The notes below the pieces were generated by a model. That model saw only the letters and a list, made by a program, of their open reading frames with translations, searched no databases and was not told the DNA's origin. DNA of 12,818 nt from a virus: UHGV virus genome UHGV-0342252; one strand, 5' to 3'. Shown in pieces: positions 1,551 through 10,478 of this stretch. Position numbers and translations under genes: made by a program. Positions within the stretch are counted from its first letter, which is position 1. Each line of letters begins with the position of its first letter.

Positions 1551-3431
1551 TTAATACTCCGTCACGTTTTCCTGTCGCCACGCCTCGTCATATTCCGATT
1601 TCGGCATATTGGCGATGTAGCTATAAGGCGATCCTGATTCAAGTTGCAGGAACTGGTGCGATTGCTCGTCAAGGAACAAAGGGACGCCACCTTCCCAACC
1701 TTCGCCGTTACGTTGTTTTTCAAGCATCAAAACAGATGCCGGAGATGCCAGTAGCTGTTCGTCCTTCTCTGACATCTTTTCACCACTCTGAACTCTCTGT
1801 AACGCTCTCTCGCGAGCCTTGTTACGCCAGATGATGAAAAGGTTGTCTGTCAGGTCTGTTATCGCTCCAGAGCCTTTTACGTCCATTTTCCCGGTTGGTT
1901 TTTCTTCGCTGTCTCCTTTTCGCGAGTGAGTAACGAGAATGACGTGGGAGTTTGTTTTGTTTTTGAAGTCGCAAATCGAGTCAACAAACGCCTTCTGCCC
2001 GTTATAGTCATCGTCGCCTATGCCACATTTCATCAGGCTGTCGATGATGAATAACTGGATCCCGTATCGGCGGCGAGCGTAGTCGAATATTTCGATCAGC
2101 CTGTCGGCTTTCGCCGTTCCGGTCAGACCAAACACCCAAAGTCTTTCGTCATAAAATTTAAATGCAGAGTCAATTTCCAGCACTGGCGGCATCTTGCAGC
2201 ACGTCGCCTGACGGGTAAGGCGCTTAAGGAGAATACCAGGCTTCAGCTCAAGTGACGCGATGCACGTCTTCACACCCTGACGCATTGCCTCAAGTGCCAT
2301 ATGCCCGACAACCTCCGTTTTTCCGTGACCGTTCACACCATTGACCAGCGTCAACTCTGCCTCACGGAACTGGAATTTATCTGCCAGAGATTCCCACGGT
2401 GGATTAAACAGATACTGCTGCTTGCCGTAGAAAGCGTTGATAGTGTCCTGGTAAAACTCTCGCGCGCTGTAGAGTTCTTCAGGATCGAAGTAGGATGCCG
2501 TGCCGATGTACTGCCAGATTTCATCCTCGGTAACACCGTTCATCAGGCATTCGTTGATGTCTTTGTACGGCAGAGTAACAAGACGGCAACGATGTTCACC
2601 GAGTCGGCTTGCGATTTCCCTTGCGGCTTCACGACCAACATCATCAACGTCCATCGAGATGAATATTTCCTCAAACCTGTCGAGGTTGTGATACTCAAAC
2701 TCAATCCACTGTTGCTTAGCGCCTTTCCCGCCACCAAACGGCACGGATAACGCCGAGATGCCGTATTGCGCATAGCTCATACAATCAATTTCGCCTTCGC
2801 AAAGTACAACCGCCCTCACGCCAGCGTCCAGAGCCTGCCATCCGAACAGACAAGGTTCGCAATCACCTTCTGCCATAATGACTTTCTTCCCGTCCGGGCG
2901 CTCAGTGCTGATTCGCTTGACCTGCAACAACTCACCATCGCGTTTGTACGGAATCACCAGAGCATCCAGTTCTCGCTCTCCATTCCACACCTTGCCGCTG
3001 ACAACCTCGTAGCGCTTTACGACTTCTGGCGATATGCCACGCGATTGCAGGTACTCAAGATGGGATTCTGTTCTGGTAACGTAGCGGGCGATTTTCTTGC
3101 GATCAGGTCTGGAGAATTTCTTCTCACGTTTGGCATCGAAATGGTGATCGTCATCCTTGATACCGAGAAATGCTTTCGCTTCCTGCATAGCCTGATGCAG
3201 GTTAATTCCTCGACATGCCATCCACAAATCAAGCATGTCACCGCCGTCCCCCTCAGCGAAATCAGCCCATTTTTTCTTGCCGCTAAGGTTGACCTTAAGG
3301 CTGTTTCCCTTGTCACCGTTGACGTTACCGGCAACCCACTCATGCCCCTCTTTCTTGCCGTTTGGCAACAGGTGCGGAGCCACCCTGTCAACCTGCGCCC
3401 AAAGCAGGTCGCTAAGTTCACTTGGCGTCAT
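1551..3431 (-). CDS. primase-helicase fusion (Toprim primase + DnaB/T7 gp4-type SF4 helicase), 626 aa
   Basis: Toprim motifs (VVLCEGEIDCMS; ISMDVDDVGREAA), Walker A (NGVNGHGKTEVV), Walker B-like (QLFIIDSLMK). N-terminal region resembles a primase zinc-binding domain but has no cysteines. ATG overlaps the stop of a small upstream ORF (ATGA). Confidence 0.85.
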   Translation of the reverse strand: MTPSELSDLLWAQVDRVAPHLLPNGKKEGHEWVAGNVNGDKGNSLKVNLSGKKKWADFAEGDGGDMLDLWMACRGINLHQAMQEAKAFLGIKDDDHHFDAKREKKFSRPDRKKIARYVTRTESHLEYLQSRGISPEVVKRYEVVSGKVWNGERELDALVIPYKRDGELLQVKRISTERPDGKKVIMAEGDCEPCLFGWQALDAGVRAVVLCEGEIDCMSYAQYGISALSVPFGGGKGAKQQWIEFEYHNLDRFEEIFISMDVDDVGREAAREIASRLGEHRCRLVTLPYKDINECLMNGVTEDEIWQYIGTASYFDPEELYSAREFYQDTINAFYGKQQYLFNPPWESLADKFQFREAELTLVNGVNGHGKTEVVGHMALEAMRQGVKTCIASLELKPGILLKRLTRQATCCKMPPVLEIDSAFKFYDERLWVFGLTGTAKADRLIEIFDYARRRYGIQLFIIDSLMKCGIGDDDYNGQKAFVDSICDFKNKTNSHVILVTHSRKGDSEEKPTGKMDVKGSGAITDLTDNLFIIWRNKARERALQRVQSGEKMSEKDEQLLASPASVLMLEKQRNGEGWEGGVPLFLDEQSHQFLQLESGSPYSYIANMPKSEYDEAWRQENVTEY

Positions 3432-4983: not shown

Positions 4984-5199
4984 TTAAGCGGCTTTGTGTT
5001 CCGGCGGGAACAAGCCATCTAGCGTTGTCTTGCTCCCCAATTTATTCAGCGCCTTTACCAGGCGACGGCACGACTCTAAATCTGGAGTCCGGATACCTGA
5101 CTCGTAGTTAGCTAAGCGGGACTGGTTCCAGCCACACGCGCCTGCTAACGCAGATTGAGTGATGCCAAGCTTTTTCCGTTCGTTGGCAATGTTGTTCAT
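4984..5199 (-). CDS. cro: Cro-like HTH repressor (71 aa), not lambda Cro type
   Basis: First gene downstream of pR, divergent from cI; SD AAGGA before the ATG. HTH (LAGACGWNQSRLANYESGIRTP) is very similar to the cI HTH (LAELCGWASQSRIGNYESGTRSV), as expected for proteins sharing operators. Confidence 0.75.
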   Translation of the reverse strand: MNNIANERKKLGITQSALAGACGWNQSRLANYESGIRTPDLESCRRLVKALNKLGSKTTLDGLFPPEHKAA

Positions 5200-5303
5200 A
5201 GGTTTCCTTAAGAGCTAGTTCACTCAGTCTTTATTAAACACATATTGTGATTGATAGTCAACACAAATCGTGTAAAGCCTTAAACCACGGAATGTGATAT
5301 AAA
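5200..5303. promoter_or_regulatory. oR / pR / pRM control region with three operator-like sites
   Basis: Three sites with a CAC-N5-GTG core (ACACATATTGTGAT 5238..5251; ACACAAATCGTGTA 5261..5274; CCACGGAATGTGAT 5284..5297) spaced about 23 bp apart. pR on the minus strand: -35 TTGACT (5261..5256), 17-bp spacer, -10 TTTAAT (5238..5233). A weak pRM -10 candidate (GATATA near 5296..5301) would give a near-leaderless cI transcript. Confidence 0.7.
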
Positions 5304-5945
5304 ATGCGCATGAACAGAACAGAAACTATCGCCGCGCGTATCAAGCGATTACGGGAAGATAAAGGGCTTTCACAGAAGGCTCTGGCGGAGCTTTGCGGCT
5401 GGGCTTCACAATCTCGGATCGGCAACTATGAATCAGGAACCAGAAGCGTTAGTGTTGATGACGCAGAGGTAATAGCTAAAGCTTTGGGCGTCGCTCCGGC
5501 AGAACTGCTTTTTGGCGACAACTATCAGGGACAATACAAGCCAGGGGAAAAGTTTCCGTTGATTAGCTGGGTTAGCGCAGGTGCATGGAGTGAGGCCGTA
5601 GAGCCGTACAACCCTCAGGCAGTGGATGAGTGGTATGAATCAGATTGTCACGTTGTCGGTGACGCCTTCTGGCTCAGGGTTCAGGGCGACTCAATGACAG
5701 CTCCTACCGGCCTTAGCGTTCCTGAGGGTATGCTGGTTCTGTTCGACACTGGAAAGGAAGCCGTTAATGGAAGCCTGGTAGTTGCGAAGCTGACAGATGC
5801 TAATGAAGCCACGTTCAAGAAGCTAATCATTGATGGCGGTAACAAATACCTGAAAGGGCTTAACCCTGCCTATCCGTTGATCCCAATCGACGGCAACTGC
5901 AAGATAATCGGCGTAGCAGTGCAGATGATGATGAAATTCTCCTGA
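5304..5945 (+). CDS. cI: CI-type prophage repressor with LexA-like S24 autopeptidase domain (213 aa)
   Basis: N-terminal HTH; C-terminal domain with Ala-Gly cleavage site (SWVSAGAW), Ser (QGDSMTAP) and Lys (VVAKL) resembles the P22 C2 / lambda CI family. Alternative start at ATG 5310. Confidence 0.9.
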   Translation: MRMNRTETIAARIKRLREDKGLSQKALAELCGWASQSRIGNYESGTRSVSVDDAEVIAKALGVAPAELLFGDNYQGQYKPGEKFPLISWVSAGAWSEAVEPYNPQAVDEWYESDCHVVGDAFWLRVQGDSMTAPTGLSVPEGMLVLFDTGKEAVNGSLVVAKLTDANEATFKKLIIDGGNKYLKGLNPAYPLIPIDGNCKIIGVAVQMMMKFS

Positions 5946-6566: not shown

Positions 6567-6893
6567 ATGGATGCACAAGCACGCCGCCGCGAACGTCGCG
6601 CAGAGAAACAGGCTCAATGGAAAGCAGCAAATCCCCTGTTGGTTGGGGTAAGCGCAAAACCAGTTAACCGCCCTATTCTCTCGCTGAATCACAAACCGAA
6701 ATCACGAGTAGAAAGCGCACTGAATCCGATAGACCTTACGGTGCTGGCTGAATACCACGAACAGATTGAAAGCAACCTGCAACGTATTGAGCGCAAGAAT
6801 CAGCGCACATGGTACAGCAAGCCACGCAGTGAAATGGGTGTGACTTGTGTTGGTCGCCAGAAAATGAAATTAGGCAGCAAGCCACTTATTTGA
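6567..6893 (+). CDS. N: antitermination protein N (108 aa)
   Basis: MDAQARRRERRAEKQAQWKAANPLLVGVSAKPVNRPILSLN... matches lambda N from memory over almost its whole length, including the Arg-rich boxB-binding N-terminus; cognate nutL and nutR boxB sites are present. Confidence 0.95.
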   Translation: MDAQARRRERRAEKQAQWKAANPLLVGVSAKPVNRPILSLNHKPKSRVESALNPIDLTVLAEYHEQIESNLQRIERKNQRTWYSKPRSEMGVTCVGRQKMKLGSKPLI

Positions 6894-7372: not shown

Positions 7373-7476
7373 TACAAATAAGCACTGTGTATTCATTCCA
7401 ACGAGTGAATACACGGAGCAATGTCGCTCGTAACTAAACAGGAGCCGACTTGTTCTGATTATTGGAAATCTTCTTT

Positions 7477-7503
7477 GCCCTCCAGTGTGAGGGCAATTTT
7501 TTT
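7477..7503 (+). terminator. intrinsic terminator between the 156-aa gene and the coiled-coil gene (tL1-like position)
   Basis: GCCCTC-CAGTGT-GAGGGC hairpin (7477..7494) followed by AATTTTTTT (7495..7503). Confidence 0.65.
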
Positions 7504-7515
7504 GACGGAGGATAT

Positions 7516-8484
7516 ATGAGTGAAGTAACAGATTTAGTTGTTATTGAAAAAGCAAATGCAATGACTGTATTTCAGTCTGCCGACCAGATTGAAGAAATCC
7601 TTCAAAAGGTTGAACGTGAAGTTATGTCCTTTGTGCCTGATATCACAACGGCAAAGGGCAGAAAGGAGATCGCTTCTCTGGCGTATAAAGTTGCGCAGAC
7701 GAAAACATATCTCGATGGTCTTGGAAAAGACCTTGTTGCTGAACTGAAGGAAATTCCAAAGCTAATTGATGCCAACCGCAAGACAGTGCGTGATCGCCTT
7801 GATGAGCTGAAATCCAAGGCACGCCAGCCTCTTACTGATTATGAGGAAGAACAGGCGCGTATTAAAGCCGAAGAAGAAGCTAAGGCAGCAGCTGAAGCTC
7901 TCGCAAAGCAAATTGAGTCTGACCATGAAATAGCGATTTTGATGGATCGCGAATTTGACCGCCAAAGAGAAGAGGCAAGACTCAAAGCGGAGCAGGAAAA
8001 GCGAGAGCATGAAGAACGCTTAAAAAGAGAAGCTGAAGAGAAAGCCAGAGCAGAAGCCGAAGCAAAGGCAAAAGCCGAAATTGAAGCAGCAGCAAGGCGA
8101 GAGGCAGAAGCTAAGGCCGCAGCGGAACGTGCAGAGCGTGAACGCATTGAAGCCGAGCAACGAGCACAGCGCGAAGCAAAAGAGGCAGCAGAACGAGCTG
8201 AAAGAGAAAAGCAGGCAGCAATTGAAGCAGAACGCAGAAAAGCACAGGAGGAGGCTGAACGAATCCGTCGCGAGGCTGAAGCAAAAGAGCAAGCCAGAAT
8301 AGCAGAAGAAAAAAGAATCAAGGACGAAGAAGAGCGCAGAGCAAAGGATAAAGCTCACCGGAAAGAAGTAAATAACAAAATACTTGCTGACCTTATCAAG
8401 GTTGGCGCATCAGAAGATGTTGCTAAAAATATCATAACAGCCATCGTAAAAGGCGAAGTATTCGCAACAAAAATAACCTACTAA
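7516..8484 (+). CDS. coiled-coil protein with long Glu/Ala/Lys/Arg-rich helical domain (322 aa), function unknown
   Basis: Start set at ATG 7516 (SD GGAGGA, downstream of the terminator) rather than the ORF-track start 7462, which lies upstream of the terminator hairpin. About 110-aa N-terminal domain, about 175 aa of EAEAKAKAE / ERAERE-type repeats, short C-terminal domain. Confidence 0.7.
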   Translation: MSEVTDLVVIEKANAMTVFQSADQIEEILQKVEREVMSFVPDITTAKGRKEIASLAYKVAQTKTYLDGLGKDLVAELKEIPKLIDANRKTVRDRLDELKSKARQPLTDYEEEQARIKAEEEAKAAAEALAKQIESDHEIAILMDREFDRQREEARLKAEQEKREHEERLKREAEEKARAEAEAKAKAEIEAAARREAEAKAAAERAERERIEAEQRAQREAKEAAERAEREKQAAIEAERRKAQEEAERIRREAEAKEQARIAEEKRIKDEEERRAKDKAHRKEVNNKILADLIKVGASEDVAKNIITAIVKGEVFATKITY

Positions 8485-8507: not shown

Positions 8508-8654
8508 ATGATTTACGCAATCGCGGGAGGCGCTCGCATGGGTGCCTTCCAACTAAATGAATCTTTACTTGAACGAATCACCCGTAAATTACGTGACGGA
8601 TGGAAACGACTCATCGACGTACTTAATCAGCCAGGAGTTCCAAAAAATGGATAA
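8508..8654 (+). CDS. cIII: CIII, FtsH inhibitor (48 aa)
   Basis: ...ESLLERITRKLRDGWKRLIDVLNQPGVPKNG matches the lambda CIII core as recalled; SD AAGGA before the ATG; stop overlaps the kil start. Confidence 0.85.
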   Translation: MIYAIAGGARMGAFQLNESLLERITRKLRDGWKRLIDVLNQPGVPKNG

Positions 8655-8760
8655 AACACTTATGGCTATCCAGACTAAATTCGCTATCGCCACTTTTATT
8701 GGCGATGAAAAGATGTTTCGTGAGGCTGTCGAAGCCTACAGGAAATGGAGGTCAAAATGA
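8647..8760 (+). CDS. kil: Kil-like host cell-division inhibitor (37 aa)
   Basis: MDKTLMAIQTKFAIATFIGDEKMFREAV... resembles the lambda Kil N-terminus as I recall it; overlaps the cIII stop as in lambda. The ORF-track ORF 8557..8760 shares this frame, but the upstream part lacks a start signal. Confidence 0.65.
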   Translation: MDKTLMAIQTKFAIATFIGDEKMFREAVEAYRKWRSK

Positions 8761-8963
8761 TTACGGTAGAACTGGCGAAAACCCCAGAGTTAAGTCGATT
8801 AAAAAGAGAGTATCACATTGCTGAGGCTCGTTACTGGCGTAAAGCGGGAGATAAATCAAAGAAACAACTTTGTTTATGGCAAGCACAAAGAGAGCGCATG
8901 AATGAGCGCGAATTTCTTTCCTCCCCATCCGAATTACCATTCGGAGGTGAATTATGGATTTGA
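8757..8963 (+). CDS. hypothetical small protein (68 aa) at the position of lambda gam
   Basis: ATG 8757 overlaps the kil stop (ATGA), SD GGAGG upstream. No resemblance to lambda Gam noted. Confidence 0.5.
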   Translation: MITVELAKTPELSRLKREYHIAEARYWRKAGDKSKKQLCLWQAQRERMNEREFLSSPSELPFGGELWI

Positions 8964-9661
8964 ACAAATTCGATGAGCCATTCAGCCCTGAAGATATCGA
9001 ATGGCGAATACAGCAAAGCGGTAAAACACGCGATGGCAAGGTGTGGGCTATGGTGCTGGCTTATGTCACGAACCGGGCAATCATGAAGCGCCTGGACGAT
9101 GTTTGCGGCAAAGCAGGATGGCGCAATGAATACCGCGATATTCCCAACAACGGCGGAGTTGAATGCGGCATATCAATCAAGATTGATTCCGAATGGGTAA
9201 CCAAATGGGATGCTGCTGAAAACACGCAGGTAGAAGCCGTCAAAGGTGGTCGTTCCGGTGCAATGAAGCGCGCTGCCGTTCAGTGGGGAATCGGTCGGTA
9301 TCTGTATAACCTTGAGGAAGGTTTCGCACAAACATCTCTCGATAAAAAGCAGGGATGGCACAGGGCAAAACTCAAGGATGGAACAGGATTTTACTGGCTC
9401 CCTCCATCGCTGCCGGGATGGGCAATCCCAGCATCAGATAACAAACCATCACCAGAAAATACCAACCAGAAATCTCCATCGGTTGACTGCGAACAAATCC
9501 TGAAAGACTTCAGCGATTATGCATCAACAGAAACTGACAAGAAAAAACTCATCGAGCGTTATCAGCGTGACTGGCAATTAATGGCTGGCAACGAGGAGGC
9601 GCAGGCTAAATGCGTTCAGGTAATGAACATCAGAGTTAACGAACTAAAACAGGCGGCATAA
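8954..9661 (+). CDS. single-strand annealing protein, Rad52/Rad22-type core (235 aa)
   Basis: Strong SD GGAGGTGA; motif GAMKRAAVQWGIGRYLYN resembles the Rad52-family annealing signature; sits where bet/erf lie in lambdoid phages. Pro/Ser/Asn-rich linker precedes a separate C-terminal domain. Confidence 0.7.
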   Translation: MDLNKFDEPFSPEDIEWRIQQSGKTRDGKVWAMVLAYVTNRAIMKRLDDVCGKAGWRNEYRDIPNNGGVECGISIKIDSEWVTKWDAAENTQVEAVKGGRSGAMKRAAVQWGIGRYLYNLEEGFAQTSLDKKQGWHRAKLKDGTGFYWLPPSLPGWAIPASDNKPSPENTNQKSPSVDCEQILKDFSDYASTETDKKKLIERYQRDWQLMAGNEEAQAKCVQVMNIRVNELKQAA

Positions 9662-10168
9662 ATGGCAAGCAGAGGCGTAAATAAGGTGATTATCCTTGGT
9701 CGGGTAGGACAAGACCCGGAAGTTCGATACTCACCATCAGGAACAGCGTTCGCTAACCTGACAATAGCCACGTCAGAACAATGGCGAGATAAAAATACTG
9801 GCGAGCAAAAGGAATTGACTGAATGGCATCGTGTTGCTGTATCCGGGAAACTGGCTGAGGTCGTGGGGCAGTATGTGAAAAAAGGTGATCAGATTTATTT
9901 CGAGGGAATGCTGAGAACCAGAAAGTGGAAAGACCAGTCAGGACAAGACCGTTACACAACCGAGGTTCATGTCGGAATTAATGGCGTGATGCAAATGCTT
10001 GGCGGCATTGGCGACAGCAAACAACAAGCAGCCAGCAGGCAATCACAGAAGCCACAGCAGCAATCATCACCAGCACAACACAACGAACCTCCGATGGATT
10101 TTGACGACGATATACCCTTTGCACCAGTAACTCTCCCCTTCCCTCGTCACGCTATTCACGCAATTTAA
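9662..10168 (+). CDS. ssb: single-stranded DNA-binding protein SSB (168 aa) with extended C-terminus
   Basis: OB-fold region parallels E. coli SSB ([16 protein letters not shown]...[15 protein letters not shown]...[17 protein letters not shown]), Gln/Pro-rich linker, acidic tail [10 protein letters not shown]; ORF continues 15 codons beyond that tail. Confidence 0.9.
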
Positions 10169-10244
10169 TCAGGAGAAAATCATGCCAGCGCCTCTGTATG
10201 GTGCGGATGACCCGCGCCGCTGTTCCGGCAATTCCGTATCGTAG

Positions 10245-10478
10245 GTGCTGGAAAGTATCAAGAATAATCTCGGCGCGTTTCTTGCTCTGCCACCAGAAAC
10301 AAAAGCAGAACGGAAGTACCGACGCGATATACAACTCGCAGAAAAACAGGAAAAAGACCGAATAAACGAAACATCAATCCGACCATTACGCAAAGCCACA
10401 TATACCCACTTCCCTGAATATATCGACCCGCGCCTGCGTAATTACCGCTCACGCTATGGCGCTATCAGTAATGACTGA
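10245..10478 (+). CDS. hypothetical protein (77 aa from GTG), possibly the 3' part of a gene interrupted by an amber codon
   Basis: A strong SD (AGGAG, 10171..10175) and ATG at 10182 open a frame that hits TAG at 10242..10244; the same frame continues from GTG 10245 with no SD of its own. Confidence 0.4.

Follow-up and report, generated by a model that had tools for sequence, protein, structure and literature searches.

The window, a stretch of 12,818 nucleotides from virus genome UHGV-0342252, is the immunity, replication and early-left region of a lambdoid phage, and over about half of its length it is 96-97% identical to phages mEp043, Sf101 and CurroJimenez. The gene considered here encodes an SSAP (single-strand annealing protein) and lies in the early-left part, among the following features, all on the plus strand.

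6567..6893 (+), open reading frame (ORF) with a lambda N-like, arginine-rich N-terminus; about 96% DNA identity to the region of Sf6 gene 37
7462..8484 (+), 340-residue coiled-coil protein
8508..8654 (+), cIII
within 8557..8760 (+), kil
8745..8963 (+), small ORF, HK97 gp42-like (PHROG 1723 'recombinase', 2.4e-32)
8954..9661 (+), SSAP gene, a complete ORF for a 235-residue single-strand annealing protein
9662..10168 (+), bacterial-type SSB (PHROG 44 at 1.6e-66; TIGR00621 at 166.9 bits)
10182..10478 (+), abc2, anti-RecBCD (PHROG 656 at 4.5e-34)

The small ORF, in the slot that arf occupies in P22, overlaps the start of the SSAP gene, and the start codon of the SSB gene abuts the SSAP stop codon. 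A preliminary description of the window had placed the ORF at 8954-9661; it is indeed there, and its translation is the 235-residue protein quoted at that time.

Identity and Distribution of the Gene

At the nucleotide level the SSAP gene is 98.6-98.9% identical to Sf6 gene 28 and to its counterparts in mEpX2, mEp235, IME10 and HK75, and 92-93% identical to those of Salmonella phages ES18, epsilon34 and others, with a total of 93 phage records containing it. The surrounding 1.8-kb module has partial matches in 1107 of 5426 complete Escherichia coli genomes, and at least 80% of it is present in 282 complete genomes of that species. The protein is identical in sequence to WP_000365280.1 of an E. 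coli S1 prophage, named 'Rad52/Rad22 family DNA repair protein' in RefSeq. Homology searches retrieved 5594 homologues, and among the matches listed all 120 of 120 carry the Pfam family PF04098, most of them being full-length. Among lambda/P22-like prophages or phages of E. coli, it is an ordinary gene for strand-annealing recombination.

The gene, its domain architecture, the domain swap and the shuffling of SSAP C-terminal domains have all been published before. The epsilon34 genome paper points out that such genes are named Erf only for their C-terminal 56 residues and notes that 'Erf domain swaps' had been discussed earlier for ST64T, Sf6 and ES18, a statement resting on three earlier papers that include the Sf6 and ES18 genome papers; the domain structure is attributed there to Poteete et al. 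1983 (PMC2629481). In an SSAP survey from 2021, Erf, Sak3 and Rad52/22 proteins were found to have a common additional C-terminal domain, which the authors called remotely homologous to the C-terminal domain (CTD) of Redbeta and explained by domain shuffling between phages (PMC8093625).

A Rad52-Type Core and a Short Linker

The protein is divided into three parts, which correspond to the following segments of the gene.

8954..9430 (+), N-terminal Rad52-type core, residues 1-159 (PF04098, AlphaFold2, Foldseek, alignment)
9431..9484 (+), flexible Pro/Ser/Asn-rich linker, residues 160-177 (variable in 32 homologues; pLDDT below 50)
9485..9658 (+), predicted C-terminal three-helix-bundle domain, residues 178-235 (P22 Erf match, hhalign, models)

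The Rad52-like character of the first 150 or so residues, suggested originally from a motif, is borne out by the Pfam family PF04098 (Rad52_Rad22), which covers residues 4-136 with positions 7-153 of its 153-position profile at 91.9 bits (E=5e-26), against a curated gathering score of 20.3 bits. In the same Pfam searches PF04404 (ERF) had no match at E<=1, either with the whole protein or with residues 1-161, and the last 75 or so residues were uncovered by any family; NCBIfam has no model for this SSAP or for P22 Erf. In an alignment of 32 homologues with 58-98% identity, the core is highly conserved to about residue 159, with an invariant helix M-K-R-A-x-V-Q-W-G-I-G-R-Y-L-Y and a conserved WxxPxLPxWAxP extension.

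A full-length AlphaFold2 model built on this alignment (mean pLDDT 83.6) predicts that the core is rich in beta structure, with residues 95-110 forming a long helix, at a pLDDT mostly of 85-95. When the model was compared with the PDB by Foldseek, the top 16 matches were all chains of Mgm101 (9yi9, 9yi7, 9yi6) or human RAD52 (8bjm, 8rjw, 5jrb, 1h2i), with E from 3e-4 to 6e-3, probability 0.97-1.00 and 13-16% sequence identity. Searches of PDB sequences with the full-length profile, the tail profile and the core sequence gave nothing significant, which for the core is expected because identity to these structures is only 13-16%. Two independent lines, the profile match and the fold of the predicted structure, thus place the core in the Rad52 family. 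The cores of Rad52, Sak and Erf form rings and anneal single-stranded DNA (ssDNA) (PMC2896510), and those of ERF, Rad52 and Redbeta are held to constitute one structural superfamily (PMC2896510; PMC9870868). By homology, the core of the present protein is presumed to be a ring-forming, ssDNA-binding annealing domain.

The Pro/Ser/Asn-rich linker described earlier needs to be shortened. Its composition is as claimed, these three residues accounting for 16 of the 29 in positions 150-178 (PPSLPGWAIPASDNKPSPENTNQKSPSVD); the true linker comprises only residues 160-177 or so, which vary in length and sequence among the 32 homologues, and residues 162-175 have pLDDT below 50. The preceding stretch, PPxLPxWAxP at 148-159, is conserved and part of the core.

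The C-Terminal Tail and P22 Erf

Beyond the linker, conservation among the 32 homologues is moderate, although L183, F186 and R227 in the C-terminal block are invariant. AlphaFold2 predicts helices at residues 179-192, 196-209 and 214-234, with pLDDT of about 88 in the full model and 90.1 when the tail is modelled alone, in which case the helices fall at tail residues 8-21, 25-38 and 43-63. A C-terminal domain of roughly 55 residues had been proposed, and the predicted one has about 58. Neither Pfam nor NCBIfam has a family for this tail.

A resemblance of the tail to the C-terminus of P22 Erf, previously offered as a suggestion, was recovered by three kinds of search at levels well beyond chance. 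A tblastn search of 50,697 phage records with the last 73 residues found the 3' end of P22 erf (64.8% identity, E=5e-24). BLASTP against P22 Erf gave a single alignment, of residues 157-235 with Erf 134-205 (50 of 79 identical, 63%; E=2e-30), and hhalign of the family profile against P22 Erf aligned only residues 172-235 with 142-205 (probability 99.3%, E=1.7e-20). In DNA the gene resembles P22 erf only over 9491-9661, from codon 180 to the stop, with 79% identity. Residues 5-146 of P22 Erf itself match PF04404 ERF (4.6e-46, 157 bits). Examined separately, the two halves of the window protein therefore go to different families, and the tail does have Erf similarity. Because the tails align while the cores fall in different families and are unalignable, these sequence comparisons bear out the chimera reading of the preliminary description, in which a Rad52-type core is joined to a P22-Erf-type tail.

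In the PHROG collection the protein matches PHROG 1097 ('Erf-like ssDNA annealing protein') over its full length (3.5e-130, residues 1-235 against positions 2-251 of the 251 in the profile). The Erf proteins of P22, Sf101 and RCIP0098 fall in PHROG 155, and their contact with PHROG 1097 is mainly via the tail; the alignment of P22 Erf to PHROG 1097 begins at residue 86 and includes the signature core helix. Since true Erf is in PHROG 155 and touches PHROG 1097 mainly by its tail, the label 'Erf-like' is misleading, being a legacy of tail-based naming and no evidence for a single family.

Tails Common to ERF and Rad52 Cores

Three single tail types were used as queries in scans of IMG/VR, and the core, tail and neighbours within 4 kb were typed at each of the resulting 240 loci; as the best 80 matches per scan were taken, the counts that follow are biased toward abundant prophages.

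Rad52 core with P22-type tail, 79 loci
Rad52 core with 'Klebsiella'-type tail, 43 loci
ERF core with 'Klebsiella'-type tail, 34 loci
P22-like ERF core with HK97-type tail, 79 loci

Clustering of 141 distinct tails, including those of named phages and database homologues, brought the two core types together repeatedly. One cluster at 75% identity or more joins 20 ERF cores and one Rad52 core; another, at 65% or more, unites 34 Rad52 cores with P22 Erf; a separate cluster at 65% or more comprises 25 ERF and two Rad52 cores; and at 55% or more the ERF protein of Pocitis76 clusters with two Rad52 proteins. No fewer than three tail lineages occur with both ERF and Rad52 cores.

The P22 tail is 80% identical to that of a Rad52-core protein (P0027), and its identity to other ERF-core tails does not exceed 45%. 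In DNA, P22 erf (2599-3216 in the P22 locus) has 92% identity to Oslo erf in a tract that starts upstream of the gene and runs to codon 158, and 87% identity to epsilon34 gene 36, which encodes a Rad52 core, between codon 150 and the stop. The Oslo-like and epsilon34-like tracts overlap on the PEQVLKAF codons at the start of helix 1, and the tails of P22 and Oslo are about 37% identical.

These observations bear on the opposite explanation, that no shuffling has taken place and that core and tail are one ancient unit, in which the cores diverged past recognition and the tail was conserved. It can draw on the common structural superfamily of the ERF, Rad52 and Redbeta cores noted above, and on PHROG 1097, which spans both halves and to which P22 Erf aligns from within its core. 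Vertical divergence, however, cannot yield cores that are 92% identical in DNA with tails only about 37% identical, as in P22 and Oslo, nor a P22 tail with 87% DNA identity to a Rad52-core gene, nor three tail lineages containing both core types, and we therefore regard this explanation as very improbable; the sudden switch of nearest relative in P22 erf by itself speaks strongly against it.

The idea that the window gene is a recent recombinant was considered and rejected: the window is collinear with epsilon34 at 87% over 8744-10168, without a breakpoint anywhere in the small ORF, SSAP and SSB genes. P22 erf is more likely to be the recombinant, because its nearest relative switches at codons 150-158 while the window gene co-diverges with epsilon34 throughout, a polarity that is drawn from sequence relationships in a biased sample. 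The most economical reading is that P22 erf combines an HK022/HK97-like ERF core with a tail from an Sf6/epsilon34-like gene, and that the window gene represents the majority lineage for the P22-type tail. More generally, the tail is a separately evolving module, exchangeable among Enterobacterales phages, with repeated recombination between ERF-type and Rad52-type cores and crossovers in or near the junction of the linker and the first helix. The mixed-core lineages, the breakpoint in P22 erf and the common IPF tip of the downstream proteins described below are modest additions to what has been published.

A homologue search with the 60-residue tail returned only 12 short fragments, uninformative on partner cores, and an exhaustive tail search of protein representatives gave 14 clusters, mostly fragments or deletion fusions; the heads of the clusters that hold full-length proteins were presumably picked by core. 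One of these products (P0013, 106 residues) begins with about 33 residues resembling an N antiterminator (MDAQTRRRERRAEKQAQWKAANPLLVGVSAKPV), fused directly to an SSAP linker and tail. Its N-terminal part is nearly identical to the product of window positions 6567-6665, and the fusion therefore points to a deletion of about 2.8 kb across the early-left operon in some prophage.

The Surrounding Recombination Module

Identity of the window to mEp043 and Sf101 is about 98% up to 8609 and resumes at about 87% from 10179 onward, and in these two phages the kil-SSAP-SSB block is replaced by an ERF-type SSAP and an HK97 gp40-like gene. Since the block has been swapped between like flanks, the whole of it behaves as a cassette.

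Neighbours were tallied within a 4-kb range at 216 loci that had at least 2.5 kb of downstream flank. Upstream, PHROG 1723 occurs at 70 of 72 window-type loci and 46 of 74 HK97-type loci, and Arf at 59 of 70 Klebsiella-type loci as well as in P22; as alternative upstream neighbours across the 216 loci, the two may be functional analogues. A bacterial-type SSB or an HK97 gp40-like gene was found within 4 kb at 210 of the 216 loci, the commonest downstream ORFs ending in DD(D/S)IPF or its extended form, and no homologue of lambda Exo or Gam was detected within 4 kb of the SSAP gene at any of them. Abc2 accompanies the P22-type (72/72) and HK97-type (74/74) tails and is found at one of 70 loci with the Klebsiella type. 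Tail type thus tracks no single phage-encoded neighbour, and the pattern for Arf is roughly the reverse of that for Abc2.

Several details of individual modules were observed in passing. The end of the window SSB gene (10094-10168) encodes an acidic tip, MDFDDDIPF at residues 145-153, followed by 15 more residues, so that the tip is not C-terminal. The same extension is present in the viable phages mEpX2, mEp235, HK75, epsilon34 and g341c, in E. coli S1 and at 46 of the 74 tallied window-type IMG/VR loci, and Pocitis76 has a diverged version. In Sf6 an HNH gene comes after that of the SSB, which ends in ...DSDIPF, and the C-terminus of the HNH protein consists of the 14 residues that end the extended SSB of the window; by this sequence match, the HNH gene seems to lie within an extended ssb, at its 3' end (Sf6 locus 5182-5671). 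E. coli ECONIH4 carries an HNH gene between the SSAP and the SSB (1263-1730). Such HNH endonuclease cassettes move around the module, neither the Sf6 nor the ECONIH4 arrangement being found in the window (10120-10180).

Directly downstream of ERF-type SSAP genes lies the gene for the 127-residue HK97 gp40-like protein, whose C-terminus reads (Y/H)DDSIPF, or YEDSIPF in one locus; examples are Sf101 gp26 (2695-3078), Oslo gp41 (2716-3099) and those of 74 IMG/VR loci. Judged by its residues, this C-terminus is a mimic of the bacterial SSB tip. A tblastn search with the window SSB had no match in the 74 gp40-like loci.

The window abc2 is interrupted at codon 21 by an in-frame amber codon (TAG, 10242-10244), with a GTG directly after it; the relative in E. 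coli S1 reads GAG at this place. The gene is either a pseudogene or the source of an N-terminally truncated 77-residue product. The sequence just downstream of the amber codon diverges from its relatives, which suggests a mosaic junction at this point.

Possible Function of the Tail

Taken as a whole, the protein is very probably the SSAP of a lambdoid Rec module, with a Rad52/Sak-type core and an exchangeable three-helix tail to which a docking role may be ascribed. It would serve as the annealing recombinase of the early-left ('Rec') module, ordered cIII - kil - small ORF - SSAP - SSB - abc2. By homology, the core of about 159 residues should assemble into oligomeric rings, bind ssDNA and anneal complementary strands, and a disordered linker tethers the 58-residue three-helix bundle. 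The tail would then act as a protein-docking module coupling the annealing core to the machinery that handles ssDNA, and in these modules, which have no lambda Exo homologue near the SSAP, Abc2-modified RecBCD would supply the ssDNA.

Findings on other SSAPs provide the model for such a role. The CTD of Redbeta, a bundle of three helices, binds both lambda Exo and the last nine residues of SSB (PMC6393309), and C-terminally truncated Redbeta is described as annealing DNA but not supporting recombination (PMC5052646). In a 24-mer ring of an Erf-like protein, the C-terminal three-helix domain is flexible and lies on the periphery (PMC13017515). The likeliest target of the present tail, by analogy with Redbeta, would be the acidic DD(D/S)IPF C-terminal tip of a phage or host SSB. 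Apart from P22, nearly all surveyed modules have an SSB-like gene nearby, usually ending in DD(D/S)IPF; P22, with neither an SSB nor a gp40-like gene, presumably uses the host SSB.

A different partner, Abc2 or Abc2-modified RecBCD, would make the tail the equivalent of the contact between the Redbeta CTD and Exo, loading the SSAP during resection by the host nuclease. Abc2 has been proposed to redirect RecBCD to load Erf (PMC9836394), and this docking site would suit the constant presence of Abc2 at window-type and HK97-type loci and in P22, as well as the want of a lambda Exo homologue of their own at the surveyed loci. It is at odds with the single Klebsiella-type locus with a detectable Abc2 among 70, whichever core type is present, and with the amber codon in the window abc2, and we judge it unlikely. 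Binding of the SSB tip is ranked above it because nearly all tail types have just one feature in common, an SSB-like protein with an acidic IPF tip or else the host SSB.

The tail might also be an accessory DNA-binding domain of helix-turn-helix (HTH) type that aids DNA binding or annealing, to which the invariant R227 in the third helix could be assigned. Poteete et al. in 1983 and Murphy et al. in 1987 reportedly placed the DNA-binding determinant of P22 Erf in its N-terminal domain, and the C-terminal domain was reportedly dispensable for ring formation and DNA binding, with the truncated proteins inactive in vivo. The location of that determinant speaks against a DNA-binding tail, as does the fact that no HTH or other DNA-binding Pfam family matches any of 23 tails, and that fold searches with the tail yield generic helical bundles and not HTH proteins. 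This alternative is accordingly the more improbable of the two.

The specific proposal that the tail is a portable 'SSB-tip reader', recognizing the tips of host SSB, phage SSB and gp40-like OB-fold proteins and swapped between cores, with P22 Erf as the recombinant that acquired its tail from a Rad52 gene, is an argument by analogy that we advance tentatively, as a possibility with the odds somewhat against it. Tail type tracks no single phage-encoded neighbour, which also speaks against docking. Between the tail and the Redbeta CTD, hhalign detected no relationship in sequence (probability 0.2%), and a Foldseek search of the PDB with the tail gave no match with E<1. Characterised SSB-tip binders use the free terminal carboxylate, and the internal tip of the window SSB, followed by 15 residues, counts against tip docking, as it leaves no free terminal carboxylate.

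Significance

The window itself adds no new biology: its SSAP gene is a common, correctly named prophage gene, and the swap is published. The practical value lies in annotation, since 'Erf' or 'Erf-like' is a widespread label for such genes, both among the phage records of GenBank and in PHROG 1097, despite their Rad52-type catalytic core; PGAP in RefSeq already names such proteins correctly. A modular tail is also relevant to recombineering, where compatibility between SSAP and SSB limits portability between hosts. If the tail does read SSB tips, tail swapping could retarget recombineering SSAPs to new hosts.

Comparison with Known Systems

The closest known systems are the orthologues Sf6 gene 28, ES18 gp49, epsilon34 gene 36 (gp36) and ST64T Orf-235, and the Sf6 gene 28 protein has a single amino-acid difference (K76R) from that of the window. 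Sf6-type relatives have in common the module order small ORF - SSAP - SSB - (HNH) - abc2. The window differs from Sf6 and ECONIH4 in having no HNH endonuclease gene in the SSB/abc2 region, and from the Sf6-type relatives in the amber codon of its abc2.

Eukaryotic RAD52, Mgm101 and Sak of the lactococcal phage ul36 have an N-terminal core of like fold and the same Pfam family. Their C-terminal regions are unrelated to that of the window protein.

With P22 Erf the likeness is reversed. Its C-terminal domain of about 58 residues is 63-67% identical to the window tail, in both proteins a linker joins a ring-type SSAP core to the tail, and both genes occupy the same early-left operon position upstream of the abc genes. 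The cores, PF04404 ERF in P22 and PF04098 Rad52_Rad22 in the window, do not align, and P22 has arf upstream, abc1 downstream and no encoded SSB.

Lambda Redbeta (Bet; CTD in PDB 6M9K) follows a like logic, with an annealing core of the Rad52 superfamily and a C-terminal three-helix bundle. The window tail, with its three predicted helices behind a flexible linker, would have the same layout as the Redbeta CTD.
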